From: Thermoplasmataceae archaeon
GTDB lineage: Archaea; Thermoplasmatota; Thermoplasmata; Thermoplasmatales; Thermoplasmataceae
Direction of reading: 5' to 3'
NCBI GenBank assembly: GCA_038729425.1
Contig: JAVYSB010000001.1
Span: 143,927-207,926 of the forward strand
Length of the DNA stretch: 64,000 nt
The notes beneath the pieces are model-generated. The model did not search any database. It saw only the letters and a program-made list of their open reading frames with translations, and was not told where the DNA came from. Positions within the stretch are counted from its first letter, which is position 1, and every line of letters begins with the position of its first letter. Positions 24,391 through 57,490 of this stretch are shown here, piece by piece. Both the position numbers and the translations under genes were made by a program.

Positions 24391-26073
24391 TTACTTACCT
24401 CCTCCAGCCACAGCACCTGGGGAAGTTTCAGGGAAGTTTGGCTCGAGCACATTTGATGTATCCGTAGTGGGTGACTTCAGCCAGCTCGAAGCAATATTAT
24501 AGAGGAATATCAGCTGACCTACACCAATTATCAGTCCTCCGAGAATTGCAGTATCCTGGAAAGGCTGGAAAAATGCGAAATATCCGTCGACCGCCCTCGG
24601 CATACCAAGAAACCCTCCAGTGGTCCAGGCAAGTGACATTATCATGGATCCAATCGCTGTCAGTCCGAAATGCCACCTTGCTAGCCTTTCGTTATACTTC
24701 CTTCCACGGGTGAAAGTTGGGAAAAGAACATAGAATGCTGCAAAAGCAATTCCCGTGGTTATACCAAGAAATATGAAGTGGAAGTGACCGGTAACCCAGT
24801 ATGTCCCGTGAACTATTTCATTGACCCCCACGTTACTTTGCATGACACCCGTAATGCCGCCAATGATGAAATCAATGATACCGTTTATTATGAAGAGCAT
24901 GGGCGTTGTCATCCTTATCCTGGTAGCCGTCCACAATGTAGCAATATAGTTAAATACCGTGATGGCCGACGGTATTACAATAAGGAATGATGCGGTGCTG
25001 AAAATGAGGTCCCACATGACACCAAGCCCAGAATTCATTAGATGATGCCCCCAGACCAACATGCTAAGTATGAGCAGTAGTCCAAGTCCTAGTATAGCAG
25101 ATGAACGGCTGTATATTTTCGCACCAGTAAAGGTTGGCAACAATTCATATATTACACCGAAGAAGGGAATAACCGGGATATAGACGATGGGGTGGCCCCA
25201 GAACCAAAACAGGATTGTAAACAAAAGAACGTTACCTGAGGAAGCGACAAAAAAGATTGGATTGAAAAAGTCATAAAACAACATGCCCAATGCTACCACT
25301 ACAGGACCGAGAGAAAGTATGGCAAGGATCATGGTGAATAGAACCGACCACGCAAAGATTGACATATTGTCCAGCCTGACCGAATTACCGCGATCAAGAA
25401 GGATCATCCTAATCACCACTATGCAGATGATAATCAGTGCAACGAATATGAGTTCAAGGCCAATTATCGCTAACCAGTTATCAGCTCCGGCACCATTAAG
25501 CGTAGCTTGAAGTGCAAGAGGAGGATAGAAATACCATCTTGTGGATGTTCTGGAGAGAATTATGAATATTCCGCCTAGGAGCCAGACCCAGTATGCGAAG
25601 GAGGAATAATTCCCCATAGTGTCTCTCTTTATCCTAATTGCTGATGGAAGGAGGTAATATGAAAGTCCGACAGTTATGCCCAGAGCCCACATATATATCA
25701 TAAGTGTAGCATGCTGGGTAAGCACAATATCATACAAATCGGGAGTCAATACAGAGGGTGTCGGCACGGATAGGCTTACCCTAAGCAGGATTCCAAATGC
25801 CCCGGCTATGAAGAAAAAAAGAAGGCTGGTGAATATAAATCTCAGTCCTATACTCTTGGAATCGTTGTACATGAAAATTGACCAGTCTGCGAAGCGCTGC
25901 CTCGATATTAGTTGGTCCCTTGCGTAAGAATCCGGATCTGCATAATCATGGCTCTCTGCGTCGTCAACCAGCGCGTCTCTTCTTGAATTATATAAATAGT
26001 ATATGAAAAACATGACAAGGCCAGCAACAGACAGCCCAAGAGAATACTCAAGCAGCGTAACGTAAAGTGCCAT
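24391..26073 (-). CDS. Heme-copper oxidase subunit I
   Basis: WFWGHPIVYIPVIP (GHPxVY), WGHHLMN and GHFHFIFLG motifs. I set the start at the internal ATG that shares one nucleotide with the subunit II stop (TGATG). Confidence 0.9.
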   Translation of the reverse strand: MALYVTLLEYSLGLSVAGLVMFFIYYLYNSRRDALVDDAESHDYADPDSYARDQLISRQRFADWSIFMYNDSKSIGLRFIFTSLLFFFIAGAFGILLRVSLSVPTPSVLTPDLYDIVLTQHATLMIYMWALGITVGLSYYLLPSAIRIKRDTMGNYSSFAYWVWLLGGIFIILSRTSTRWYFYPPLALQATLNGAGADNWLAIIGLELIFVALIIICIVVIRMILLDRGNSVRLDNMSIFAWSVLFTMILAILSLGPVVVALGMLFYDFFNPIFFVASSGNVLLFTILFWFWGHPIVYIPVIPFFGVIYELLPTFTGAKIYSRSSAILGLGLLLILSMLVWGHHLMNSGLGVMWDLIFSTASFLIVIPSAITVFNYIATLWTATRIRMTTPMLFIINGIIDFIIGGITGVMQSNVGVNEIVHGTYWVTGHFHFIFLGITTGIAFAAFYVLFPTFTRGRKYNERLARWHFGLTAIGSMIMSLAWTTGGFLGMPRAVDGYFAFFQPFQDTAILGGLIIGVGQLIFLYNIASSWLKSPTTDTSNVLEPNFPETSPGAVAGGGK

Positions 26074-26537
26074 CAGGGCACCACCGTCATGTAGCCTCTC
26101 ATTGTGTAGTGACCCTGACCGCAGTATTCCACACAAACAAAATAATAGCTACCAGTATGCGTTGGCGTGAACTGAACAACATTGGTCTGGCCAGGAACTG
26201 CGTAGGATTGTACACCTAATTGGGGAATAAGAAGCGAGTGAATAACCGCGGAACTCGTTTGCGTGGCTGCAGACGTAATTACAAGTGTATATGTTTCGTT
26301 AACTGCTACGTTGAAAGCGTCGTAGGTAGTATTCCCCGTAGAATTCGTAAAGGACCAGAGCCACTGGGTAGCCACAACATCAATTACATTTGGGCCGGTA
26401 GGGATTTTGCCGTAATCGGCCTGGGCAATCTCAGTGGATTGATTCTGCACCACCATAAAATTCCAGTACATTGCAACAGAAATAACCGCAAGTACGCCAA
26501 TCATCCATAGCAGTTCTGTCTTGATCTTCTTGTTCAT
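26073..26537 (-). CDS. Heme-copper oxidase subunit II (CuA domain)
   Basis: CuA motif CVEYCGQGHYTM, plus an N-terminal TM. The start MNKKIK... overlaps the stop of the upstream small ORF (ATGA). Confidence 0.85.
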   Translation of the reverse strand: MNKKIKTELLWMIGVLAVISVAMYWNFMVVQNQSTEIAQADYGKIPTGPNVIDVVATQWLWSFTNSTGNTTYDAFNVAVNETYTLVITSAATQTSSAVIHSLLIPQLGVQSYAVPGQTNVVQFTPTHTGSYYFVCVEYCGQGHYTMRGYMTVVP

Positions 26538-26782
26538 CTGAAGTCCTCCCAATTATGCGATCGATCTGCTTTCTTAAAAACTGGGTAAATCAAAAGTAAT
26601 ATCGTAAGGGCTCCACTTGCTATTCCGGAAGCCATGAAGGGTGCTGCGACTGCGGCTGTCTGGGAACCGGGGTTCCCTCCAAAAAACCTCGCAAAAGAGT
26701 AAGCCAGCAGAAGGTCACTGACGACTCCGATAATTACAGACGCAATAAAGAAAATGAGAATTATCTTAATTTTCTCATCCAT
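26534..26782 (-). CDS. Small two-TM membrane protein, first gene of the oxidase operon
   Basis: MDEKIKIILIFFIASVIIGVVSDLLLAY...AAPFMASGIASGALTILLLIYPVF. I chose the internal ATG at 26782 because a TATA-like box sits about 25 nt upstream and the longer N-terminal extension is AT-rich. Confidence 0.5.
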   Translation of the reverse strand: MDEKIKIILIFFIASVIIGVVSDLLLAYSFARFFGGNPGSQTAAVAAPFMASGIASGALTILLLIYPVFKKADRSHNWEDFR

Positions 26783-45985: not shown

Positions 45986-46900
45986 CTAGAAATCGCGTTT
46001 TATGCCAGAGGTCTCCCTGGTTCCAATGAAATCCTGTATAAGCTTCGCGGCAAGCATTGACGTGTTGCCATTGTCATAGAGAGGCGTAAATTCCAGAACG
46101 TCAAATCCCACTGCTCTCCTGGCAAATGCATTTACGACCCTTCTGACATCAGTATCGGAGAGCCCATAGGGCTCAGGGGTCCCAACGCCAGGGGCAAATG
46201 CAGGATCGATGCCATCCATGTCAATGGAAATGTACACATTTCCCTTCACAGACGCATTTATTTGTTCTATGACCCATTCTATGCCCTTTTCCCTAACCAG
46301 TCTTGATCCAAAGAATCTCACCTTGCTGAAATCAGGTGAATCGTACTCCTCCTTGGAGATTGACCTGGTACCGATTGAAAAAATTCTTCCTGGCCCGAGT
46401 ATCTCTAGGCTCCTTCTTGTTACGCAAGCATGATTGTTCCTATTTCCCATATAGGATTCACGGAAATCAGAGTGCGCATCTATTATTATCATGCTTATGT
46501 CTTTGAGGTTTCTTATGACTCCAGTGGTTATGGAATGTTCACCGCCTATCATGATTGGGATCTTGCCGTCGGAGAGAATTACAGAGGTAGCTTCCTGCAC
46601 GGAATCGACAACTTCTCCTGCGTCCTCGCCGACTTCAAGGTTTCCAATGTCCGAAATTGGTATCTCTTGAAAATTTACACCATAATAGGGGTCGAACGAT
46701 TCCAGGTTATCATACGAATACCGCACGCTGTCTGGCCCAAGCCGAGATCCTCTACGAAAACTTGATGTTCCATCAAATGGGACGCCGAATACCACATACT
46801 TTGATTTAGAATATGCGAAGTGCGCATCTGGAAGTTTTGAACTTCTGAAGAGATAGCTCAGTTCTGGAACATTATCTTCTTCTTGCCCATGGTCTCCCAA
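45986..46900 (-). CDS. speB: Agmatinase (arginase/ureohydrolase family)
   Basis: [28 protein letters not shown] and [20 protein letters not shown] motifs. It apparently starts at a TTG that overlaps the aIF5A 3' end by 43 nt, so the start is uncertain. Confidence 0.85.
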
Positions 46901-47247
46901 TATGGTACCTCCGTACCGGGTTTGACTCTAGCTGCATCTTCCGGAGACAACGAAATGAAGAATGTCTCGAATGTCTCTGAGTCCATCAACTGGGCTTCGT
47001 TGTTTGCAACCGAAAGAACCTGTGCATTCTTCTTCTCTATGATCGGTACCTTGACCTTGTGCTTGACCGGATACACAACGCTGTGTTTCTGGTCATCGAA
47101 TATACCAATTGCGACTATTCTTCCCTTAGCCTCGCCGTGTTTACCAGGCTTAGACATCGTTATTTCCATGATCTTGCAAGGGGAGTCGTCTATAAGCATG
47201 TACCTTCCAACTTTCAATTCCCTAACTTCGGCTTCCTGCCAGCTCAT
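46858..47247 (-). CDS. eif5a: Translation initiation factor 5A (aIF5A)
   Basis: [43 protein letters not shown] includes the hypusination loop GKHG. I chose the internal ATG at 47247, giving 129 aa. Confidence 0.9.
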
Positions 47248-47320
47248 TATAATTCCCAGAGCGATCGTCTCTGTGCTTATATACTTTGCCAGATTTATTT
47301 CCTGAAGAGAATATTTAGCC

Positions 47321-48589
47321 TTAATAGAATTCCTGCTCACTCTGCACTCCGGCGAATGGCTTTACGAGCGCACCGTTATCTTTCAGCACTGATCCGTTGA
47401 CCAAAACGTATTTCACGTTGGAAGGGTTCGCCGAATACACAATATTGCTGACGGCGTTCTCAGCCTTCGTGGGCATAAGATTTGGCATCCTGGAATCTAT
47501 GAGAACAATGTCTGCGAGTTTTCCCTGCTCAATCGACCCTAGTAGGTCGCCATGGTCAAGGGCTTTTGCCGCGTTTACAGTGCACATGTCGAGGATGGTC
47601 TGAGCCGCGATTATGGCGGGATCCCATCGATCATTCTTAATCCACAGTGCGGAAAATTTCATTGCCTCGAACATATCGAGGGAGTTGTTGCTGCCAGAGC
47701 TGTCTGTGCCTACAGACACTGTAATGCCGCTTTCAAGCATCTCCGGCACAGGGGCTATGCCGCCAACACCGAGTTTTCCATTGCTTATTGAATTCCATGA
47801 CACTTTTACACTGTTCCTGGCCATTTGCCTGATCTCGCTCAGTGTAACCCAGACAGAATGTGCAGCAAGTACCTTGGGATTGAGAAAGCCGATTTCATTC
47901 AGGTGTTCAGTAGGTCTCTTACCATTGCTCTTCCTAACGTAGTCGTAGACTTCTTTCCTGGTTTCGGCCAGGTGCGTGTGTATTATTGTTCCGTGCCTTT
48001 CAGCGACTTCTCTGACCCTGAAGTAATTCTCATCGCTGCTGACATATATTCCCTGAACACCCACGGATGGATATACAAGTTCCCTGCCGGAATGGGTGGA
48101 AATGAAGTGATCAGCGTTCTTCACTGGGTTGCCCTTCTGTGTGGTGAATTCCTCGTCAAGGGTGTTCCATGAGAGAAATCCGCGGATCCCAGAATCTTCC
48201 ACTGCCTTGGAGATTACGTCCTCAGAATAATATAGATCCGCGAAGGACGTGATACCGTTAGTGATCATTTCGTCAATGCCCAGCCTCGAAGAATTGTAGA
48301 TGCCACTTTCTGTCCTTTCACCGTCCAGTGAGAAAGTTTTCTCCAGAAAGCTTTCAAGAGATATATCATCGAGTTTTCCCTTAAGGTGTGACATTGCAAC
48401 ATGGGCATGCGTGTTAATTAATCCCGGAATGGCTATCATTCCGGTAGCATCGATAACCCTGTCTGCATCCTGTGTTTTTCCGTTTACACCAGAAATTCTG
48501 TTTCCCTCAATTAGAATATTAGCTATCCTGATGTTTCGTTCGGCGTCCTGAGTAACTGTAAGGGCATTCTTTATGAGAATCGATGCCAT
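47321..48589 (-). CDS. mtaD: Amidohydrolase of the MTA/SAH deaminase (MtaD) / chlorohydrolase type
   Basis: IKNALTV...[14 protein letters not shown] and later the HLAET and GTDS motifs. Length is 422 aa. Confidence 0.65.
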
Positions 48590-48595
48590 GATACC

Positions 48596-49450
48596 TTATT
48601 GCCGTCCCGTATTATTTTTTATCTCGGGTAGCCGGGCATCGCCTTTCCTGGAAGTCCTCGCCATTACTATGAAGGTTACGACGACTGCGAAGCCTATGAT
48701 GGAGAGCTGGTACTGGGTGTAGCTGAAAAAATCATAAATAGCGAAAAGAAGGGCCCCCACTATGGCACCTCCTACCATGGAGAAACCAAGATCTGCCAGC
48801 CTTTCCCTCTGGTGATCCTTTTCCCTGAGGTAAATGGAAAAAACAATGGCGATCGTGGAAACAATGAAAAGGATGAGGAGTTCATATCCTATGGTAATCT
48901 GAAAGTTAGCCATGGGCAGGAATTCCTGATATCCGTAAACAAAAAGTTCGTAATAGGACTCAACGTCGAGCCCCAATACAAGTCCAATGGCACTCATGAA
49001 TGAAAGCGCAAACTCATGCATAGCGGCTATTATTGTAAGCTCATCCAGCATGGATCCCAGGGAGAGTAGAAGAAGGCCCATTGCCCTTGCTGGACCGCGA
49101 GACAATATACCTTCGGCTATAAAGATTAGAACCAGGGCAAAGACAAAGGCAAAAGCCGTGGAAAGTTCCAGAGGAAGAGCAAAAATGCGCAGATAATAGT
49201 ATGTTGACGGGTTAAAATTGTAAGTCAAGGTAGCGAGTATGAGAAGAAGAACCGCAATTGCGGAAACAGGGTAAACAGTATGCCTGAAACGAAACGGTAC
49301 AAGGTATTTAACGAACGGCAAGGACGAGAGTACAACAAGAATGATAATATCCAGGTAGGGGTAAAAATATGGGAAGATGTAAATGTATATGAAGATGGCG
49401 GGGGCAAATATCAAAGCGTTTAAAGCAATATTGAAAGCAGATCTTGCCAT
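48596..49450 (-). CDS. Polytopic membrane protein of unknown function, last gene of the MoxR/DUF58 module
   Basis: 284 aa, about 7-8 TM. Its start abuts the DUF58 stop with no gap. Confidence 0.55.
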   Translation of the reverse strand: MARSAFNIALNALIFAPAIFIYIYIFPYFYPYLDIIILVVLSSLPFVKYLVPFRFRHTVYPVSAIAVLLLILATLTYNFNPSTYYYLRIFALPLELSTAFAFVFALVLIFIAEGILSRGPARAMGLLLLSLGSMLDELTIIAAMHEFALSFMSAIGLVLGLDVESYYELFVYGYQEFLPMANFQITIGYELLILFIVSTIAIVFSIYLREKDHQRERLADLGFSMVGGAIVGALLFAIYDFFSYTQYQLSIIGFAVVVTFIVMARTSRKGDARLPEIKNNTGRQ

Positions 49451-50764
49451 TCACGCACCCTCATTCGTCAGTTTTCCGTATCTGTATTCTGCCATAATCT
49501 TGTAAAGAAGATCCTTTTCCCTTGATACTGAAGATCTAATCCCCAGAGAATTAAAGAATCTCGACAGTGCGCTGAGGTATCTATAATGTTTAAGGCCTGA
49601 ATCAGTCATGAGGGCGCTGTAAACCTCATCATTCCTCTTCTCCATGAAATCATAGGGATCTAGGATGAAAAGAGATACCCTGTCCTTGGTCTCGAATTCT
49701 TTTCTTGTTCCCTTCTGAAATCTTTCAGGATAAGAGAAGGGTGTTATTATGAAGACAAGGGCGTTCTTCTTCACATTCTTTCTGATTCTATCGAATGACT
49801 GGAATATGGAGAAATCCCCATGAGGCCTTATCTCTGAGACAGTTTGCTCAAACTTTCTTATGGATTCCTGCGACTTCTTTGCCGGTATGTAATAATCGTA
49901 CTTTGAGGAATTTATTATATAACCAACGCCATCATGGTTCTTCACTATGCTGTATGAGGCGTTCATTATTGTCGATATCACGAAATCATACATCCTCTTC
50001 TGCCTAGTTCCCTGATTCATCCCAATTCCATAGTCTACGACAAAGATCACGTCAATCTGTCGCTCCTCCTCCATCTGCTTTATGTAGATATCTTCGCCGT
50101 TAAGGAACCCGTATCTGCTCCATGCAACATATTTCAGGTCATCAGATTCGTTATACGGCCGGATTCCATAGAAGTTGTATCCCTGACCTATTTTCTGGGA
50201 ATAATGTATGCCGTAGGTGAACTTGAGATTGCTCAGCCTCTCGCTCCTCTGCGTATATATGTCAGATATGGCTGGAGATATGATCATCTCATCCACAACG
50301 GGTGCAGCAAAGGAAGATATGCATAGCTTCATCGGGTCTTCTGCATAAATAATCACCGGCCCGACCTTGTATTTTCCAATGGCTATGGAAGCGATAGAAT
50401 AGTCTCTCCTGACTTCCTCTCCAGGCTTGAGCGTGATGTATCCCTGAAAATCGCCGCCGGTGTTGAATACATCGGAAAGTGTGTCATAATAGTGAAAGTA
50501 AACCGTCCGCTTGCTCTGGTTGGAGAAAAAGATACGCACGGGGCGCATCTCGAATTTTCTGGCAGTGTTCACGTCAAGTTCCCTTCTTACGCTGATTTTG
50601 GTTATGTTTTTCGACAGGCCAGTATTGAAGGCTACAACGTCGCTTGAGACAATGAAAAACAGGATCATGAGAGCTACGATATAGTAGCCATAACCAAGAA
50701 AAAGAGCTTCGAGGAGACCGCCAACAATGATCCCCAGTACTATGTATCCAGTCTTTCTTATCAT
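49451..50764 (-). CDS. DUF58-family protein (two N-terminal TM helices, beta-sandwich, VWA-like domain)
   Basis: SDDLKYVAWSRYG...IDVIFVVDYG matches the DUF58 core (DxRxIxW...). There is a 4-nt overlap with the moxR stop. Confidence 0.75.
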   Translation of the reverse strand: MIRKTGYIVLGIIVGGLLEALFLGYGYYIVALMILFFIVSSDVVAFNTGLSKNITKISVRRELDVNTARKFEMRPVRIFFSNQSKRTVYFHYYDTLSDVFNTGGDFQGYITLKPGEEVRRDYSIASIAIGKYKVGPVIIYAEDPMKLCISSFAAPVVDEMIISPAISDIYTQRSERLSNLKFTYGIHYSQKIGQGYNFYGIRPYNESDDLKYVAWSRYGFLNGEDIYIKQMEEERQIDVIFVVDYGIGMNQGTRQKRMYDFVISTIMNASYSIVKNHDGVGYIINSSKYDYYIPAKKSQESIRKFEQTVSEIRPHGDFSIFQSFDRIRKNVKKNALVFIITPFSYPERFQKGTRKEFETKDRVSLFILDPYDFMEKRNDEVYSALMTDSGLKHYRYLSALSRFFNSLGIRSSVSREKDLLYKIMAEYRYGKLTNEGA

Positions 50765-51729
50765 ACTGGGATCTCTACTTCGCCCACTATTCTATCTATG
50801 ATCTTATTTACAGCCCCAACTGGATCAGACGAACTGTCGATCATTGCCTCCGGCTTCAGCAAGATCCTGTGATTCAGCAGTTCTCGCGAGATTGACACGA
50901 TATCTTCAGGTATCACGTAGTTCCTCCCGTTGATCAATGCGTTCGCCCTGACCGCCTTGAGGTATTTCGCAGTCGTCCTCGGGCTTGCTCCGAGATAAAC
51001 GAGATCGCTTTCCCTTGTCCTCCTGATGAGATCTACTATGTATACCTTGACTTCCTGAGAAATGTAAACGTTATCCACAGCCTGCCTGAGTTTAAGAATC
51101 TGGTCAGCGTTCATCTGGTTCTCCTTTATCTGTGCCCTGTTGGTAATGGAGTTCAGTATGTTGATTTCTTCCTCCCTTGTGGGATAACCAAGGTTATACC
51201 TGAAAAGGAACCTGTCCATCAGCGCCTCCGCAAGTGGGAATGTGCCCTCCTGTTCCACTGGGTTCTGGGTCGCAATTACCAGGTAGGGTTCAGGCAATAT
51301 GTGATCTTCGCCGCCAACTGAGACCTTGTGTTCCTCCATCGCCTCCAGCAGCGCCGATTGAACTTTGGCCGGAGTCCTGTTAATCTCGTCTGCTAAAATC
51401 AGGTTTGAGAATACCGGCCCCTGTCTGAATTCCATCTTTCTGGATTCCAGGTTAAAGACAATGCTCCCAGTGATATCCGATGGCAGCATGTCAGGTGTGA
51501 ACTGAATCCTGTTAAAATCGATTCCAATCTCTTTCGCGAACTGGCTAGCGAGCATTGTCTTGGCCAGCCCAGGCACACCTTCGAGCAGAATATGGTTTCC
51601 GCTCATTAGCGCTATAAACATAAAGCGCACAATGCGTTCTGAACCGACAACCACCTTCCCCATATCCGCCTGGATCTGTTTGACTGTTGCCCTGAGTTCG
51701 AGCAGATCATCGCCATTGACTTCTGTCAT
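50761..51729 (-). CDS. MoxR-family AAA+ ATPase
   Basis: ILLEGVPGLAKTMLA (Walker A) and LILADEINRTPAKVQSALLEAMEE (Walker B plus the MoxR signature). Length is 322 aa. Confidence 0.9.
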   Translation of the reverse strand: MTEVNGDDLLELRATVKQIQADMGKVVVGSERIVRFMFIALMSGNHILLEGVPGLAKTMLASQFAKEIGIDFNRIQFTPDMLPSDITGSIVFNLESRKMEFRQGPVFSNLILADEINRTPAKVQSALLEAMEEHKVSVGGEDHILPEPYLVIATQNPVEQEGTFPLAEALMDRFLFRYNLGYPTREEEINILNSITNRAQIKENQMNADQILKLRQAVDNVYISQEVKVYIVDLIRRTRESDLVYLGASPRTTAKYLKAVRANALINGRNYVIPEDIVSISRELLNHRILLKPEAMIDSSSDPVGAVNKIIDRIVGEVEIPV

Positions 51730-52235
51730 CTTTGATTGACACCTTCCTTCACTGAGCTTAACTCGAAACGCTCCATTTTTAGCCTCCTAACATTAGCGTA
51801 GAGATCGAGTATGCTCTTGAACGTTTGTTGTTTTAGCTCTTCTCCCCTTTTTTTCCTTTTTTTGTAGGTAGATTTGCTCATACTCTCGTACTTTCTGTAT
51901 GCCTTCAGGAGACGCCTGAAGTCTTCTGAACTACTTTTCAACACGTCAAAATCCGCACCTATGTCTGTCAGATACTTTTCATAATTATTGCTCTGAATAA
52001 TTTTCACCTCCAGGTTAAATCTGTCTGTTGGCAGGTCGAATGGTTCCTTCATCTGTTCTAGTGTCGGAGGTGCGTCTATTTTTGTGCGTTTTGAGAGCCT
52101 TTGGTACGCCACCGACATCACGAGTACAAGGAATACAGGGATAATGAATCTGAAAAGGATCTGCGGGGCACTACTAATATTGGAGATAAATGTCGAAAGC
52201 GCGGTCGAGAGTAATCCGCCAGCTCCGGCTGCCAT
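51726..52235 (-). CDS. Single-pass membrane protein with a K/R-rich helical tail, unknown function
   Basis: 169 aa. The TM is FRFIIPVFLVLVMSVAY. There is a 4-nt overlap with the moxR start, and the gene begins 1 nt after the stop of the 1179-aa gene. Confidence 0.55.
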   Translation of the reverse strand: MAAGAGGLLSTALSTFISNISSAPQILFRFIIPVFLVLVMSVAYQRLSKRTKIDAPPTLEQMKEPFDLPTDRFNLEVKIIQSNNYEKYLTDIGADFDVLKSSSEDFRRLLKAYRKYESMSKSTYKKRKKRGEELKQQTFKSILDLYANVRRLKMERFELSSVKEGVNQR

Positions 52236-52236
52236 T

Positions 52237-55200
52237 TCATATCACCCCGCCGGTAAGGTATGTATCGTAAAAGTAAACGGTGACTATCAAATGAGGAGGA
52301 GCGGTAGTCAATGAATCGGAATATATGTCAATTGCTAACTTGGACCCACTTGTATAAGCGATATAGCTAAGCAGCGTCAGGTTAGTTAATTCCTGCCCCG
52401 AGCTTTCTGAAACAGGAACGCTGGAGTTGTCAAAGCGAAGTGTAACAGGTGAAGTCCATGTCTCGTTCGTCGATATGCCGTATATCAGCACCTTTCCGCC
52501 GTCAGGAACTGAGGTTAGGTTTGCAGTCTCATTACCATCTGTCTGAGACGCTTTAAGCACCTGACTCGAGGGAGTTACAGTAAAGTTTACGCTCTCGTTA
52601 TAACTGGTTTCACTGAGCAGAAACTGCAAGGATTCATACAGGTTCCCATCAATAAAAGCGTTGAATACAAACGTACCGCTTGTCAGGTTCTCGTAGGTAA
52701 TCGGTTTCACTATCGCTGTCTGCACTGGCATGTAAGGGGTTACATTGAAACTCCACGGCAGGACTGAATTGTTTTTGATTTCCAGCAGGTAGTTTTTGAC
52801 CGTTTCATTGTAAAGCCTGTCCTTTCCGGAGATATTGCCATAGAATGATGCCGGTACATAGTGTGGATTGATGTAGCTGAAATCATAGGTACCATTCTGC
52901 ACAAAAAATGAGAAATCGGTACCGTTCGTAAGGTTGGTTGTCTTGCCGGTTATGGGCAGCACGGAGTTCGAAACGTTCAAGGAATCAGGTACGTGCCATG
53001 AATAGTTGTATACGCTGTTCAAATGCATCGTGTCATTATAAAGCGTGGCAGGATTCAGTGCAAATAGTTCACTTCCGGATGGCCCTTCCAGTGAGAACAA
53101 TTTGCTGCTGTTCTTGTATTGCACCATTGAAACAAGGAAGGCCATGGAACCTGTCAGATTCATGGTTATAGTGTACTGTCCGGAGCTATCTGTTTTACCC
53201 ATGAACCTGTAAATAGCTCCATCTATCTTGATGAATCCTAGGAAGTAGGTATTTTCTATTGGCACAGATGATGATGAATTCTCAAGGCTCGCAGTCAAGC
53301 TGACTGGGTTAGTGGTATTATTGGTCAGCGCGTATGCCAGGCTATCCGAGGAATTTGACAAATCTCCTGCAAGTGCCGTATAGGAGAGGAACGGGACTCC
53401 TGTGCCGGATTGCCCAGATAGCAGGCTAACACCATTCCCGATTGTATCGAGCGGCGTCAAAACCGCATCTGAGATGAATGGCCCAGTAATAGCAAAAGCT
53501 GATGTTGTATAGTTATAGTAACCGGGAGCGTCAAACCGCAGAGTATAGTCACTTGAGGTATCATTCACCAAGTATATGGAATAGTATCCAGAGCTATCAG
53601 AACTATTTTGCCTGGCAAGATAATTATTTCCGTCTATACCAACAAGAATAACCGACGTGTTCACTGGATTGCCTGCAATATTTTTTACTGATCCTGATAC
53701 AGTATTCACGTATTGCGGCAGTGGTTTAAGCGAGAAATTCAGGTCCTGTAATGTGTTTAAGCTGCTTATACTGAACTCAATTGAGTGCGTATAGTAGTAC
53801 GGAGAGAAAACTATCATCTTATACTGTCCTTGGAAGTTTATTCCCACTATATACTGCCCTGCCGAGCTGGTTGTGACGTTATCATAGTAGTAAACACCAC
53901 TCACATTAATCAGGAAGAGAATATGTGTGTTGAATACGGGGAGTGAGTTGTTGGCATTGGTAACCTTACCAGTGATCTCAAAATTGCCTGGTGCATTAAA
54001 ATTGATATTCGAACCGTTACCAGACCCTGCGAGGAAGCTGGTTACATTACCACTCTCAGGTCCGTTAACCCCGTATGTCCCCGTTCCCGTGTTACTGCCA
54101 AGGAAGGGCTGCCGGAAGTCCAATGTAATATTAACATCGTACTTCGGACTATTCACATCTACAACCCCAGTATAATTTGTAACGAATGAAATGCCCGAAG
54201 CTGAAAACGTGTAATTTCCTTCGAAGATCGTAAGCGAGTATTCACCATTACCAGCAGTTTTGTTTAATTTGGATGAAACGTTCTGCACCTGGTTATTTGA
54301 AATCTTGTAAACATAGTTCGCAGTTACGGTTATACCGCTCAGGAGATTCCCAGCTTGATCTTTCACAAAGCCGGTAACTGTGAACACGTGACTACCATAC
54401 GGTGTCAGATTGAAATTCCAGTACTGTACCGGCACATTGATGCCTATGGAAAAATTGTACTGATAATAGAATGGAGAATATACAACAAAGAAGTAATGGC
54501 CCGGATAGTAGAGAGGGACCTGATAGAAGCCGGTATTGTTGGTAGTTACATTTTTATAGAAAATTGTTCCATTAATCTCTAGGAAAAACCTTACCTCCGT
54601 CAGCGCCACCCTCTGGCTTGTGGTTTTGTCAGTGATGTTGCCTACCAGCAGGTAATTCGAAGGTCCGTTTCCATAATTTATAGTTGACGAATTCCCATTA
54701 CCGCCAAGGGTTCCGGAGATGTTGGACCCTGCAGAAGGTGGGACTCCGGATACACCGGTGCCTGAACCGCTGCCGGAACCAATGTTATTTGTGAATGGGT
54801 TGACGTTAATGAGTGTTATATTCACATCAGTCAGGTTTCTGTCCACGAACGTTTTTGTCTCTCCAACCCCGAATCCGACTTTAATGGCTGCAACGTACGT
54901 GCTCCCGTAGGCAGCAGTTATGTTGTAAAATCCAGAATTGTTCGTCAGAGTTGTATTGGACGGGGAAGGCACGGAAACCGTGGCGCTTGCGATTGGTTGC
55001 TTGAGATCGTTAAAGACATATCCACTGACACTATAGTACTTCAGAGGAAGGATGCCGATAAGATACGGATCGTTTTTCGAACCCTGCGGTCCGGATACAT
55101 TGAGATATGCAGGGTGCGTCTCCTTTGAAAACTGCGTCGAGGTTACGGTGATTGCATATGAATCGAAATACGCAGACACATTGAGGTAACCATTGTGACC

Positions 55201-55776
55201 CGATTGCACGTCAATATAATCCTGCGGTCCAAAATAACCCTGCAATTGGAGTGGCACGTCAGGCTCAGGAAGCTGAGGAGAGGATTTATATCCAATGGTC
55301 TCTAGCTCGTACTTATATGGAGTGGCCGGAACGAAAGACATGTTGTTCCATACAGAGTTCCCGAAAACGCTCAACGAAATTAGCTTTGTATTGTATTTAT
55401 AGACAGCGAAAAGGATGTTATATTCACCCGTATAAAGCACGGTGAATTTGTAAAATCCATTACTGTTAGTATATGTTGTTGTCTGAGCCGCTGAAACGAA
55501 AGCAAACAGGTCAGCGTTTCCAATGGGCTGGCCGTCACTGCCGTTTGTAATGTAACCCTGGATCACAACGGAGGATTGCTGCTGAGGTAAAATGGACGTC
55601 CTCCCGCTCCCAAATCCATTCCCTATGCCTATACCATTATATCCCTGGATCTGGAACACCTGGAACTTCTCATTTATGTTCGGGACGCCGCTTGGATAGC
55701 TTACATGAAAATAAGAAAATACGAATGACACGAGGACTATGCCTACTACCAATAGTGCAACTGCCTTCGCGTTCAT
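52237..55776 (-). CDS. Giant N-terminally anchored extracellular protein with CarboxypepD_reg-like beta-sandwich repeats, probably heavily N-glycosylated
   Basis: 1179 aa. The N-terminal signal/anchor is AVALLVVGIVLVSFVF. It has repeated G(Y/F)V.N..G.P pattern domains and Gly/Ser/Asn linkers. I counted about 55 N-x-S/T sequons by hand. There are no Cys-rich or enzymatic motifs. Confidence 0.7.
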   Translation of the reverse strand: MNAKAVALLVVGIVLVSFVFSYFHVSYPSGVPNINEKFQVFQIQGYNGIGIGNGFGSGRTSILPQQQSSVVIQGYITNGSDGQPIGNADLFAFVSAAQTTTYTNSNGFYKFTVLYTGEYNILFAVYKYNTKLISLSVFGNSVWNNMSFVPATPYKYELETIGYKSSPQLPEPDVPLQLQGYFGPQDYIDVQSGHNGYLNVSAYFDSYAITVTSTQFSKETHPAYLNVSGPQGSKNDPYLIGILPLKYYSVSGYVFNDLKQPIASATVSVPSPSNTTLTNNSGFYNITAAYGSTYVAAIKVGFGVGETKTFVDRNLTDVNITLINVNPFTNNIGSGSGSGTGVSGVPPSAGSNISGTLGGNGNSSTINYGNGPSNYLLVGNITDKTTSQRVALTEVRFFLEINGTIFYKNVTTNNTGFYQVPLYYPGHYFFVVYSPFYYQYNFSIGINVPVQYWNFNLTPYGSHVFTVTGFVKDQAGNLLSGITVTANYVYKISNNQVQNVSSKLNKTAGNGEYSLTIFEGNYTFSASGISFVTNYTGVVDVNSPKYDVNITLDFRQPFLGSNTGTGTYGVNGPESGNVTSFLAGSGNGSNINFNAPGNFEITGKVTNANNSLPVFNTHILFLINVSGVYYYDNVTTSSAGQYIVGINFQGQYKMIVFSPYYYTHSIEFSISSLNTLQDLNFSLKPLPQYVNTVSGSVKNIAGNPVNTSVILVGIDGNNYLARQNSSDSSGYYSIYLVNDTSSDYTLRFDAPGYYNYTTSAFAITGPFISDAVLTPLDTIGNGVSLLSGQSGTGVPFLSYTALAGDLSNSSDSLAYALTNNTTNPVSLTASLENSSSSVPIENTYFLGFIKIDGAIYRFMGKTDSSGQYTITMNLTGSMAFLVSMVQYKNSSKLFSLEGPSGSELFALNPATLYNDTMHLNSVYNYSWHVPDSLNVSNSVLPITGKTTNLTNGTDFSFFVQNGTYDFSYINPHYVPASFYGNISGKDRLYNETVKNYLLEIKNNSVLPWSFNVTPYMPVQTAIVKPITYENLTSGTFVFNAFIDGNLYESLQFLLSETSYNESVNFTVTPSSQVLKASQTDGNETANLTSVPDGGKVLIYGISTNETWTSPVTLRFDNSSVPVSESSGQELTNLTLLSYIAYTSGSKLAIDIYSDSLTTAPPHLIVTVYFYDTYLTGGVI
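53047..54804 (-). repeat. Three tandem ~225-aa protein modules inside the giant surface protein gene
   Basis: Residues ~325-460, ~553-686 and ~775-910 align. Examples: GSGSGSGTGVSGVPPSAG / GSNTGTGTYGVNGPESG / GQSGTGVPF, and EVRFFLEINGTIFYKNVTTNNTGFYQV / THILFLINVSGVYYYDNVTTSSAGQYIV / NTYFLGFIKIDGAIYRFMGKTDSSGQYTI. Confidence 0.65.
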
Positions 55777-55797
55777 AATGGTTTACTAAACATTACT

Positions 55798-55805
55798 CCT
55801 ATAAA
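55798..55805 (-). promoter_or_regulatory. TATA-like box of the giant-protein/MoxR operon
   Basis: The minus strand reads gTATTTATAGGag, 22-29 nt upstream of ATG 55776. Confidence 0.4.
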
Positions 55806-55849: not shown

Positions 55850-57490
55850 TTAATTTCTTACTTTAACAGCAACTCCTTTCTTGAGGCTAACCATTGCATC
55901 TGCTGGCATCTTCGCAATCCCAACACCCCTGACCTCGCCTTCATGCACAAGGACAACCTCGTCCTCCTGCCTTATATCAGGTGACGCAGAAATAACGCCC
56001 ACTGCATAAACATTGGCGGTAGGCTTGAAATTGTCTATCTCGACAATACGCTTCATGGCTTCCACAAACCAAGGCGCTGCATTGCGATTAATGGTCATCT
56101 TCCCATTGGAGGGGTTATAAACCAGCATCACTTTTCCATTTTCCGTAAGGAGTTCAAAGTCGTAGTTTATCACCCTTTTAAGATTAGACATTTTTGGGAT
56201 GATCCAGCTTCCAAACTGGTATGAGGCAATTGATGCAATGGTCTGGAGCCTGTTCGATTGAGTAATCGTCCCATCCCTTTTTTTCGCATCCAGAACTTCG
56301 ATCAATTTCTTGCGCAGTTCTCTGAGATCGTCGCTGTTTCCCATCTCTCCCCTGATGAATGTGCTGCCAGCCGGAAGAGATTCCTCAAGAAATTCGAGAT
56401 CCTCCGGGAGGAAAGTAATTACGTCTGCGTAATGGTTCCTTGAGAAATACTCTGAAGCAAGCGTTGACATCATTTTCCTTTCATCTTGATACCAGTGACC
56501 TATTACTGGGATGTCGTAATACCTCGCAGGGTAACCTTCCTCAAGTTCTCTTGGAACCATGCCCACCGGAGAGGTCACGATAATTTCGTGAAGATATTTC
56601 CTGAACTCCCCGATCGCGGAGAACAGTTTCATGTGGCTCTTGCTACTGGAGTAAGGCTTTCTCGCGGAGCAGGGAATAACAAGCGCTATCTTTTCCCTTG
56701 GGGGGCTATAGTCTTCAAGTAGCTTGTTACGATATCTCACGAGGTCTGGTCTCTCCAGAGACTCTATGGAATTGGCATGAATGGATCCTGTTCTTGAGGG
56801 AAATACCCGTTCTGTTTCTTCTCCGTATCGAAAATCCATGATCCTCAGTATCTCCATGGCCTTGCTTGATACCTGGAATTTCTCAACCACATCTCTTAGT
56901 GTGCCGGATTTAATTGAGGCTGCAGTTAGGCTTATGATATTCCTTAAGAATTTAATGTTCTCATCAAGTGGATTATGATCAACTTTTATCCTTCCCAGCG
57001 GAGTATACTGAACCATATTAAGGCTCTCAATCCGTGCGTAACTGTCATCAAAGAATGAGACCCCGGCATATACTAGAACTGGTATAAGATACGGGTCCGA
57101 AATGCCCTGTGCATAGTAAAGTGAGCCAAATTTTTCTTTCCAGAAACTTTCCTGTATAACTTTCAGCAATCTTGATGGTCTCTGGATGAGTTCAGACCCG
57201 TTCGCCAAGATACTTAACTCATCCGTTTTCCAAATTGGAGATCCCCGCTTCATGAAGTCAGGATATGCAAACCCTGCATCGAATGGTGTCTCCATTATGA
57301 CCAATTTTCCATTGCCTCTGGTCATAATCCTTGAATCAGTGGAATCGAGCACCGCTGGATACTGAAACTTTTCGTTGTATATGCCAGCACGCGCGAATCC
57401 GAAAATGGCTTGATCTTCAATCACGCTACTCCATTTCCCCGGGGAAAAAAACGTTTGCCTTTTGAAACCGACCACAACGAAATCATGCAC
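55850..57490 (-). CDS. arcS: Archaeosine synthase ArcS (TGT-like N-domain, DUF5591, C-terminal PUA)
   Basis: VIPCSARKPYSSSKSH fits the ArcS-specific PC-x3-KPY-x2-S-x2-H motif. The C-terminus has a PUA-like segment (VVLVHEGEVRGVGIAKM). The start is uncertain. Confidence 0.75.
   Translation of the reverse strand: MHDFVVVGFKRQTFFSPGKWSSVIEDQAIFGFARAGIYNEKFQYPAVLDSTDSRIMTRGNGKLVIMETPFDAGFAYPDFMKRGSPIWKTDELSILANGSELIQRPSRLLKVIQESFWKEKFGSLYYAQGISDPYLIPVLVYAGVSFFDDSYARIESLNMVQYTPLGRIKVDHNPLDENIKFLRNIISLTAASIKSGTLRDVVEKFQVSSKAMEILRIMDFRYGEETERVFPSRTGSIHANSIESLERPDLVRYRNKLLEDYSPPREKIALVIPCSARKPYSSSKSHMKLFSAIGEFRKYLHEIIVTSPVGMVPRELEEGYPARYYDIPVIGHWYQDERKMMSTLASEYFSRNHYADVITFLPEDLEFLEESLPAGSTFIRGEMGNSDDLRELRKKLIEVLDAKKRDGTITQSNRLQTIASIASYQFGSWIIPKMSNLKRVINYDFELLTENGKVMLVYNPSNGKMTINRNAAPWFVEAMKRIVEIDNFKPTANVYAVGVISASPDIRQEDEVVLVHEGEVRGVGIAKMPADAMVSLKKGVAVKVRN

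Follow-up and report, generated by a model that had tools for sequence, protein, structure and literature searches.

To our knowledge, MoxR-DUF58 modules of the MRP type are among the most widespread AAA+ systems of bacteria and archaea that lack a solved mechanism or a firmly established client. Here, a module of this kind is described in a stretch of 64,000 nucleotides (the window) from contig JAVYSB010000001.1 of a Thermoplasmataceae archaeon (GenBank assembly GCA_038729425.1). In this window, the genes of a MoxR-type ATPase and of a DUF58 protein are framed by genes for a very large predicted surface protein (the giant), a single-pass membrane protein (p169) and a polytopic membrane protein (tm284). 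An initial annotation, made from the DNA letters and a list of open reading frames (ORFs), had pointed out this arrangement and is followed up here by computational analyses.

Related systems have been described in archaea and bacteria. Makarova et al. predicted in 2015 an archaeal secretion or membrane-remodelling complex ('putative secretion system'), which comprises a MoxR/GvpN-family ATPase, an Ig-vWA protein (arCOG02742/02747), a DUF4350 protein (arCOG01314), Ig-like S-layer-like proteins as well as proteins with 2-3 and with 5 transmembrane (TM) segments (PMC5898192). In bifidobacteria, the PFNA cluster has the composition pkb2-fn3-aaa-atp-duf58-tgm and forms one operon in B. longum (PMC8430577, PMC12067865). 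For NorQ/NorD, it was described that the MoxR hexamer binds one vWA partner, that a finger enters the pore, and that the partner's linker is remodelled in an ATP-driven manner (PMC9976466, PMC13036017). Furthermore, cryo-electron tomography revealed that an unordered exterior glycoprotein layer of ~20 nm replaces the S-layer in wall-less Thermoplasmatales; the identity of the protein is unknown (PMC12448462). The initial annotation had considered the framing of the MoxR-DUF58 pair as unusual, which was overstated in view of the precedents in the predicted archaeal complex (PMC5898192) and in the PFNA cluster (PMC8430577).

The conserved operon described here is very probably a lineage-specific variant of the MoxR-DUF58 membrane module. 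That the MoxR-DUF58 machine is functionally dedicated to the giant is an evenly balanced proposition, which rests on synteny and on the analogy with other MoxR/vWA pairs.

Gene order and distribution in the Thermoplasmatales

One genome per species was scanned with the DUF58 alignment as query, which yielded 80 loci, and the ORFs of these loci were searched by phmmer with the window proteins. Except for one 'bacterium' and one 'uncultured archaeon', all loci are labelled Thermoplasmata, Thermoplasmatales or Thermoplasmatota, and they include Oxyplasma, Cuniculiplasma, Thermoplasma, Acidiplasma, Ferroplasma and Thermogymnomonas. The window itself, which stems from an uncultured member of the order, has 'Thermoplasmatales archaeon B_DKE' and genome CP060531 as relatives. 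Presence was counted over those loci that offer enough DNA on the relevant side. On this basis, p169 and MoxR are located upstream of DUF58 in 69/69 loci, with MoxR adjoining its DUF58 partner gene in all related loci, tm284 is located downstream in 71/73 loci, and a large N-anchored ORF rich in N-X-S/T sequons is located upstream in 54 of 55. The comparison of gene neighbourhoods proposed in the initial annotation thus showed that the five genes co-occur as a unit conserved across the order. The ancestral module, however, has a sixth member: a gene of ~190 amino acids (p190; e.g. L004:9424-9993) lies between the giant and p169 in 50 of the 55 loci. From these comparisons, the ancestral order can be reconstructed with high confidence as giant-p190-p169-MoxR-DUF58-tm284, from which the clade of the window would have lost p190 and gained a repeat unit in the giant. 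Vertical inheritance of the operon across the Thermoplasmatales is predicted with high confidence as well. In the clade of the window, the gap between giant and p169 amounts to 1-109 nt, and a hidden Markov model (HMM) of p190 matched nothing in any frame of the window.

The flanks of the block are less constant. The gene of archaeosine synthase alpha (arcS) is found upstream in 37 loci and not upstream in 10, and mtaD adjoins tm284 in 51/65 loci and not in the other 14; the five genes also stay together where arcS or mtaD is not adjacent. In loci of the Ferroplasma/Acidiplasma type, the block is intact with neither arcS nor mtaD next to it. Here, the sampled upstream flank carries a divergent PfkB kinase gene, with LonB and CGI-121 farther out, and the sampled downstream flanks carry a wyosine radical-SAM gene ~700 nt off or, encoded on the other strand, GH15 or Endonuclease V. 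In Thermoplasma, tm284 is followed by a PLD-like gene or PCNA. This variation of the flanks around a constant block is the main evidence for grouping the giant, but not mtaD, aIF5A and speB, with the MoxR genes. The initial annotation had correctly described that the run continues co-directionally into these three genes; they lie, however, outside the module.

In a few loci, genes of the region are broken. All of them are fragmented in Thermogymnomonas acidicola JCM 13583 (L085), Cuniculiplasma sp. KMA_Bin18 (L067) has no intact giant and DUF58, and speB is present in two pieces in L001/L007. These are most likely frameshifts of draft assemblies and not biology.

The close packing of the genes in the window is consistent with one transcript. 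The reading of five minus-strand ORFs behind a single TATA-like box was confirmed, with the ORFs at the exact coordinates (Table 1), as were the junctions: the TGA of the giant is separated from the ATG of p169 by a single A (1-nt gap), p169/MoxR and MoxR/DUF58 share 4-nt ATGA overlaps, and the TGA of DUF58 directly abuts the ATG of tm284. The TATA box is preceded by an A-rich stretch resembling a transcription factor B recognition element, and a TATA-like element ~-28 to -30 upstream of the orthologue of the giant occurs in most related loci. In the TATA-motif check of the window, no such element was found 20-40 nt upstream of p169, MoxR, DUF58 or tm284; Shine-Dalgarno-like motifs of the GGTG type are present upstream of p169, MoxR and tm284. 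This pattern fits a leaderless first cistron, the giant, followed by internal cistrons led by Shine-Dalgarno motifs, and TTTATA is likely the promoter of a leaderless operon transcript. A scan with models of sigma-70 promoters and intrinsic terminators gave counts equal to those of shuffled controls; these models are not applicable to archaea, and the promoter question was addressed by the TATA-motif check in their place.

Table 1. Positions of the module genes, their sequence elements and further features in the 64,000-nt window
Feature	Position in window	Strand	Size or residues	Basis or remark
Giant gene	52237-55776	minus	1179 aa	ORF list
p169 gene	51726-52235	minus	169 aa	ORF list
MoxR gene	50761-51729	minus	322 aa	ORF list
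DUF58 gene	49451-50764	minus	437 aa	ORF list
tm284 gene	48596-49450	minus	284 aa	ORF list
TATA box TTTATA	55800-55805	minus		-29 from giant ATG, centre ~27 nt upstream; sequence read
A/T-rich box ATAAAAAATAATA	48610-48622	minus		inside 3' end of tm284, 21-33 nt upstream of mtaD ATG
N-terminal TM helix of giant	55708-55764	minus	residues 5-23	hydropathy; followed by juxtamembrane motif FHxxYP
Extra repeat unit of giant	53617-54336	minus	residues ~481-720	specific to window clade; gapped in orthologues outside clade
Charged loop of DUF58	49736-49795		residues ~324-343 to 361, loop 342-361	AlphaFold2 model
arcS	55850-57490	minus		GTG start
mtaD-like, aIF5A, speB	45986-48589	minus		downstream, co-directional
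ORF with second-highest sequon density	26073-26552	minus	159 aa	N-terminal hydrophobic segment, 4 sequons

Downstream of the module, mtaD begins 6 nt past tm284, and the A/T-rich box inside the 3' end of tm284 is probably a candidate promoter of mtaD itself, which would mark the downstream boundary of the module. The mtaD-like amidohydrolase (PRK06380), aIF5A and agmatinase (speB) genes also follow co-directionally in loci L001-L086, and the ORFs of aIF5A and speB overlap by 43 nt in ~30 related loci. These three genes appear to form a cluster of their own, with polyamines and hypusine as its theme, apart from the MoxR module. The upstream gene was identified as arcS by a Thermoplasmata-type NCBIfam model (9e-200). 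It is listed with a GTG start, and its orthologues are called at 493-601 aa, so that its true start is uncertain.

Protein products and predicted topology

On the basis of its sequence, the ATPase of the window is a MoxR-type AAA+ ATPase and MRP-like. It matched AAA_3 (PF07726) at 1.7e-61 (206 bits vs a cutoff of 27), AAA_lid_2 at 2.3e-14 and, more weakly, the bpMoxR model of Pfam at 2e-13. All motifs are intact, namely Walker A (GVPGLAKT), Walker B (LILADE), sensor 1 (ATQN), the Arg finger (ALMDRF) and sensor 2 (GASPR), and the nearest solved structure is 2r44 (E=1e-78). The other HMM checks suggested in the initial annotation likewise identified DUF58 (PF01882, 2.5e-16, 59.9 bits vs a cutoff of 23.4) and CarboxypepD_reg in the giant (3.2e-34, several stretches), and models of the DUF4350/DUF4129 type matched none of the products.

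For the DUF58 protein, no significant sequence match was obtained in the PDB, and hydropathy indicates a pair of TM segments. An AlphaFold2 model built on 42 sequences reached a predicted local distance difference test score (pLDDT) of 81.3 and consists of a TM hairpin (residues 4-48), an Ig-like β-sandwich (57-163), a linker (172-233) and an α/β vWA domain (238-433). The linker is modelled with low confidence yet is highly conserved. In Foldseek searches, the β-sandwich matched MG/Ig-like domains, and the α/β domain matched the vWA domains of CMG2/ANTXR, TFIIH p44, Rpn10 and NorD (in NorQD) with E-values of ~1e-5 to 1e-6. The metal ion-dependent adhesion site (MIDAS) is degenerate and reads D244-Y-G-I-G in the window instead of DxSxS. 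Within the family, position 246 is S in 33/42 and G in 9/42 sequences, and only 9/42 have S at position 248 (family pattern D-Y-S/G-x-G/S/N/A), whereas the bacterial Bat-type DUF58 used for comparison has an intact motif (DISAS). In the model, PFSYPERFQKGTRKEFETKD forms a charged loop that stands out from the vWA domain, with a lower confidence of ~70. Judged from the model, the loop at residues 342-361 is a candidate counterpart of the finger with which NorD enters the pore.

The giant was confirmed as an N-anchored protein of extreme sequon content. Hydropathy indicates a single TM helix at its N-terminus, and its 56 N-X-S/T sequons compare with ~23 expected from composition, by far the highest density among the ORFs of the window. 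The runner-up, the small ORF listed last in Table 1, may encode another small surface protein. The N-terminal helix of the giant may serve as a stable anchor or may be a signal peptide that is cleaved off. Residues 1-30 (55687-55776), which comprise the TM helix and the motif FHxxYP..P, form the best-conserved part of the protein (0.49 vs a mean of 0.31). Such conservation would be expected if the anchor contacts membrane partners, or it could be a processing site. The initial annotation had stated that the giant, p169 and tm284 cannot be assigned to any characterised family. This holds for the latter two; the giant, in contrast, was resolved at the domain level as a CarboxypepD_reg β-sandwich repeat protein, even if no significant PDB sequence match was found. 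Its ectodomain consists of β-sandwich domains of this type with linkers rich in G/S/N, and both models, PF13620 and PF13715, were matched by 22/22 sampled orthologues, which included short Ferroplasma-type versions and those missed by phmmer.

The orthologues of the giant vary from 517 to 1287 aa and contain 4-8.7 sequons per 100 aa, which corresponds to ~2-3.5x the expectation from composition. In the clade of the window, the protein is ~230 aa longer than outside of it, and the source is one added repeat unit. Residues 330-560 and 560-800 share 32% identity over 215 aa (E=1e-34) and represent an internal tandem duplication; the extra unit arose through tandem duplication of a unit of two β-sandwiches plus linker. 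A fusion of the giant with p190 was rejected, since the HMM of p190 matched no frame of the window, and the internal repeat unit accounts for the extra length.

The remaining partners are orphans. The K/R-rich single-pass nature of p169 was confirmed: a short uncharged N-terminus is followed by one TM segment and, past it, by the conserved motif IDAPPTLEQ..EPF..P.D.F and a K/R-rich helical domain. No relative was found in Pfam, NCBIfam, PADLOC or PDB, and Pfam gave no match across 44 relatives of p169. The polytopic character of tm284 was supported by ~8 hydrophobic segments in the hydropathy profile. Pfam, NCBIfam and PADLOC offered no family for it and the PDB no relative, and a profile search of 1.84 billion representatives with a shallow alignment recovered only 30 clusters. 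Because all of these span 151-314 aa, tm284 has no multidomain relatives, and it appears to be an orphan family confined to the lineage of the Thermoplasmatales. P17, G173 and G228 are invariant in the family; no polar or catalytic residue is conserved, and a Cys/His/Asp triad is absent. Transglut_core was matched neither by the five products of the window nor by 44 relatives of tm284, one of which gave a marginal match to TgpA_N (PF11992, E=0.0037), and the HMM of tm284 did not match the TgpA_N-bearing protein of Halorubrum. The p190 protein has no TM segment, a K-rich N-terminus and the motifs KTVGDIPP, FYLxYYExARF and DIYNYMDIMKLYF; among 36 relatives no Pfam match was obtained, and no PDB relative was found.

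Some assignments of these orphans were considered and not retained. Paralogy of p169 and p190 was rejected (hhalign probability 0.3%), and the idea derived from the motif FYLxYYExARF that p190 is a DUF4129 protein was unsupported by Pfam scans, HMM searches and hhalign. Likewise, the ideas that p169 is DUF7269 and that tm284 is DUF7519 or TgpA_N, which came from gene position only, were unsupported save for the marginal TgpA_N match.

To place the products relative to the membrane, sequon density was used as a proxy for extracellular exposure. The family of the giant has 5.7 sequons per 100 aa (2.6x the expectation), the families of p190, p169, MoxR, DUF58 and tm284 have 0.3-0.6 (ratio 0.7-1.0; DUF58 1.0), and the cytosolic controls arcS, speB and mtaD have 0.5-0.8 (ratio 0.9-1.0). 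The TM hairpin of DUF58 is flanked by charges of +2.1 before and +3.2 after, and because both flanks are positive, both ends of the protein should be inside. The p169 family has a net charge of -0.7 before and +2.6 after the TM segment, for which reason an N-out, C-in orientation is assigned. From the sequon proxy and the flank charges we infer that the giant alone is extracellular and that the other parts face the cytoplasm or lie in the membrane.

The putative client and alternative explanations

A mechanism can be proposed from these observations. The giant would be located outside, held by one N-terminal helix and heavily N-glycosylated. Around this anchor helix, p169, the DUF58 hairpin and tm284 might form a membrane platform, with most of p169 on the cytoplasmic side, together with the Ig and vWA domains of DUF58. 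A MoxR hexamer would engage the vWA domain of DUF58 as NorQ does NorD, and ATP hydrolysis would pull or twist the conserved linker of DUF58. The force might be relayed to the membrane platform and thereby assist the surface glycoprotein in its insertion, its assembly into oligomers, its anchoring or its turnover. The general binding mode of MoxR and vWA proteins and the linker remodelling of NorD, which have been described (PMC9976466, PMC13036017), support this model, as does the secretion or remodelling complex that Makarova et al. proposed for archaea (PMC5898192).

Several observations weigh against a machine dedicated to the giant. Expression or proteomic data for the operon were not found in the literature, and the supplement of PMC12448462 contains no matching terms. 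All of the synteny was observed within one order, whose genomes generally keep their gene order, and arcS and mtaD are mostly adjacent, too. In addition, p190 is absent from the clade of the window and from two other clades or groups of loci, and thus dispensable at least in the former. The giant evolves fast, as its range of lengths shows, and its cytoplasmic tail has only ~4 residues, so that a coupling to the cytoplasmic MoxR would have to pass via the membrane helices. The AlphaFold2 model of tm284, obtained from 12 close sequences, reached a pLDDT of only 37 and thus lends no structural support to the membrane platform. Finally, Makarova et al. described Ig-vWA proteins as likely secreted, the opposite of the topology proposed here (PMC5898192).

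Some of these points would also fit an explanation in which the giant is a mere neighbour and the unit (p190)-p169-MoxR-DUF58-tm284 serves another client, for example membrane or envelope homeostasis as proposed for MRP/Bat operons. Conserved gene order around the locus (arcS upstream in 37 loci, mtaD adjacent in 51/65), the divergence of the giant, which is far faster than that of its partners, and its tiny cytoplasmic tail are in line with this explanation, as are bacterial MoxR-DUF58 operons, which function without such a surface protein. We nevertheless regard it as possible but rather unlikely. A sequon-rich, N-anchored large ORF lies directly upstream in all but one of 55 loci and stays in place where neither arcS nor mtaD is adjacent, only few nucleotides separate it from the next gene, and in the window no TATA-like element precedes any of the internal genes. 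Moreover, the TM helix and the juxtamembrane motif are the best-conserved part of the giant, and surface proteins of the Ig-like or FN3 type are also encoded in other MoxR-DUF58 clusters, both archaeal and bifidobacterial (PMC5898192; PMC8430577).

The predicted topology, with the giant as sole extracellular part and the other domains facing the cytoplasm, could also belong to a transmembrane signalling or regulatory device. In such a device, the giant would sense contact, pH or envelope stress, and MoxR-DUF58 would act as cytoplasmic output or reset switch. A role in regulating the surface structures of archaea has been proposed for vWA proteins that occur together with MoxR/GvpN ATPases (PMC4858521), and a signalling role was also proposed by the authors of the PFNA study (PMC8430577). 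However, output domains such as a kinase, phosphatase or HTH are absent from the module, and the cytoplasmic tail of the giant has only ~4 residues; the build of β-sandwich repeats and linkers and the very high sequon density look structural rather than ligand-specific. This explanation is therefore distinctly improbable.

A chaperone for metal-cofactor insertion (NorQD-, CoxDE- or CbbQO-like) or an anti-phage/conflict system of the ternary MoxR-vWA type, for which the MoxR/vWA pairing itself and the bpMoxR match would speak, is hardly to be expected, given the degenerate MIDAS (DYGIG, with Ser at the second Ser position in 9/42), the absence of a metalloenzyme client next to the module, of a match to any PADLOC system and of a β-propeller or effector gene, and the housekeeping position and vertical inheritance across the order. 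Because the MIDAS is degenerate, protein remodelling is favoured over metal insertion.

Returning to a module that serves the giant, one obvious candidate client, an abundant-looking surface glycoprotein, is hard-wired into the operon across the whole order. The giant is a reasonable candidate for a component of the ~20-nm exterior layer, and the module supplies a candidate gene for this protein layer of wall-less acidophilic archaea. A more far-reaching proposal, which is put forward as doubtful at present, is that the giant is a principal building block of this layer and that p169-MoxR-DUF58-tm284 may be a dedicated ATP-driven apparatus which assembles, anchors or renews it from the cytoplasmic side. 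If true, archaeal cell surfaces would be built here in a way not characterised before, and a MoxR-DUF58 module of the MRP type would have its first defined client. If the link to the giant is false, an ordinary lineage-specific MoxR-DUF58 operon beside a surface protein would be left. As the order has cultivable species (Thermoplasma, Cuniculiplasma, Oxyplasma, Ferroplasma), the question of the client is experimentally testable.

Comparison with described MoxR systems

The nearest published concept is the arCOG01314-associated system of Makarova et al., which is itself a prediction only. Both have a MoxR ATPase, an Ig-vWA protein and an Ig-like surface protein in one operon, which is a predicted one in the published system and there also covers the small proteins with 2-3 and 5 TM segments. 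In contrast to that system, DUF4350 is found neither in the five products of the window nor in the 22 orthologues of the giant, while it is present in the haloarchaeal comparators. Furthermore, the Ig-vWA protein is regarded as likely secreted there, and a cytoplasmic location behind a TM hairpin is predicted for it here; the accessory proteins p169, tm284 and p190 are order-specific orphans, and the surface protein is a giant made of CarboxypepD_reg repeats, the sequon density of which is extreme.

Clusters on haloarchaeal megaplasmids, with the order DUF4129(-transglutaminase) - DUF7269 - DUF58 - DUF7519 (or a 511-aa protein) beside MoxR, follow the same grammar position by position: a membrane protein with extracellular β-sandwich, a small membrane protein, DUF58, a polytopic protein and a nearby MoxR. 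MoxR is, however, transcribed divergently there, and these clusters contain a transglutaminase core, DUF4129 or DUF4350, which do not occur in the Thermoplasmatales module; the DUF4129 protein sometimes adds a transglutaminase core and β-sandwich domains. No HMM or profile-profile link was found between p169, tm284 or p190 and DUF7269, DUF7519, DUF4129 or the 511-aa protein (HMM scores ~0, hhalign probability <=0.3, with small haloarchaeal profiles of 2-4 sequences), and with profiles of this size a very remote homology is possible. The haloarchaeal clusters (L090-L095) are located among genes of glycosyltransferases, a flippase, sulfatase and DUF1616, and one of them adjoins a 616-aa TSP3-repeat protein annotated as 'SdrC adhesin'. 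These neighbourhoods give hints of a general tie between this type of module and surface glycoconjugates.

In the PFNA cluster of bifidobacteria, too, MoxR, DUF58 and a polytopic membrane protein are directly preceded by a large, secreted, glycosylated β-sandwich (FN3) protein. The cluster differs in being bacterial, in a Ser/Thr kinase that phosphorylates MoxR and in a membrane protein with a transglutaminase core; an equivalent of p169 does not occur, and FN3 domains take the place of CarboxypepD_reg domains. With the Bat/MRP operon (MoxR-DUF58-DUF4381-BatA-BatB-BatD-TPR), in the classical form of which the most distant DUF58 match is located, the module shares the core gene order, overlapping junctions and membrane-anchored downstream partners. 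Bat-type DUF58, in contrast, has an intact DxSxS MIDAS and ~20% identity, the Bat operon has no giant surface protein, and BatA, VWA, BatD and TPR were not matched by any of the five products of the window.

NorQ/NorD, CbbQ/CbbO and RavA/ViaA provide the mechanistic template, and NorD was among the Foldseek matches of the DUF58 model. Pairs of the NorQ/NorD type act on soluble or respiratory metalloenzymes via a functional MIDAS; here, the MIDAS is degenerate, the vWA protein is predicted to be anchored in the membrane, and a surface glycoprotein is presumed to be the client. For the ternary conflict systems of MoxR, vWA and β-propeller proteins (PMC7159879), no propeller or effector domain was detected in the five products, and PADLOC reported no defence system, with only marginal IetA P-loop matches for MoxR and none for the other four.

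Taken together, the module is a lineage-specific variant and not a new class, since a MoxR-DUF58 core with Ig-like surface proteins and small membrane proteins has already been documented or predicted. New here are the fixed composition with three orphan families across an entire order, the exceptionally sequon-rich, N-anchored β-sandwich giant, and the occurrence in a lineage without wall or S-layer.

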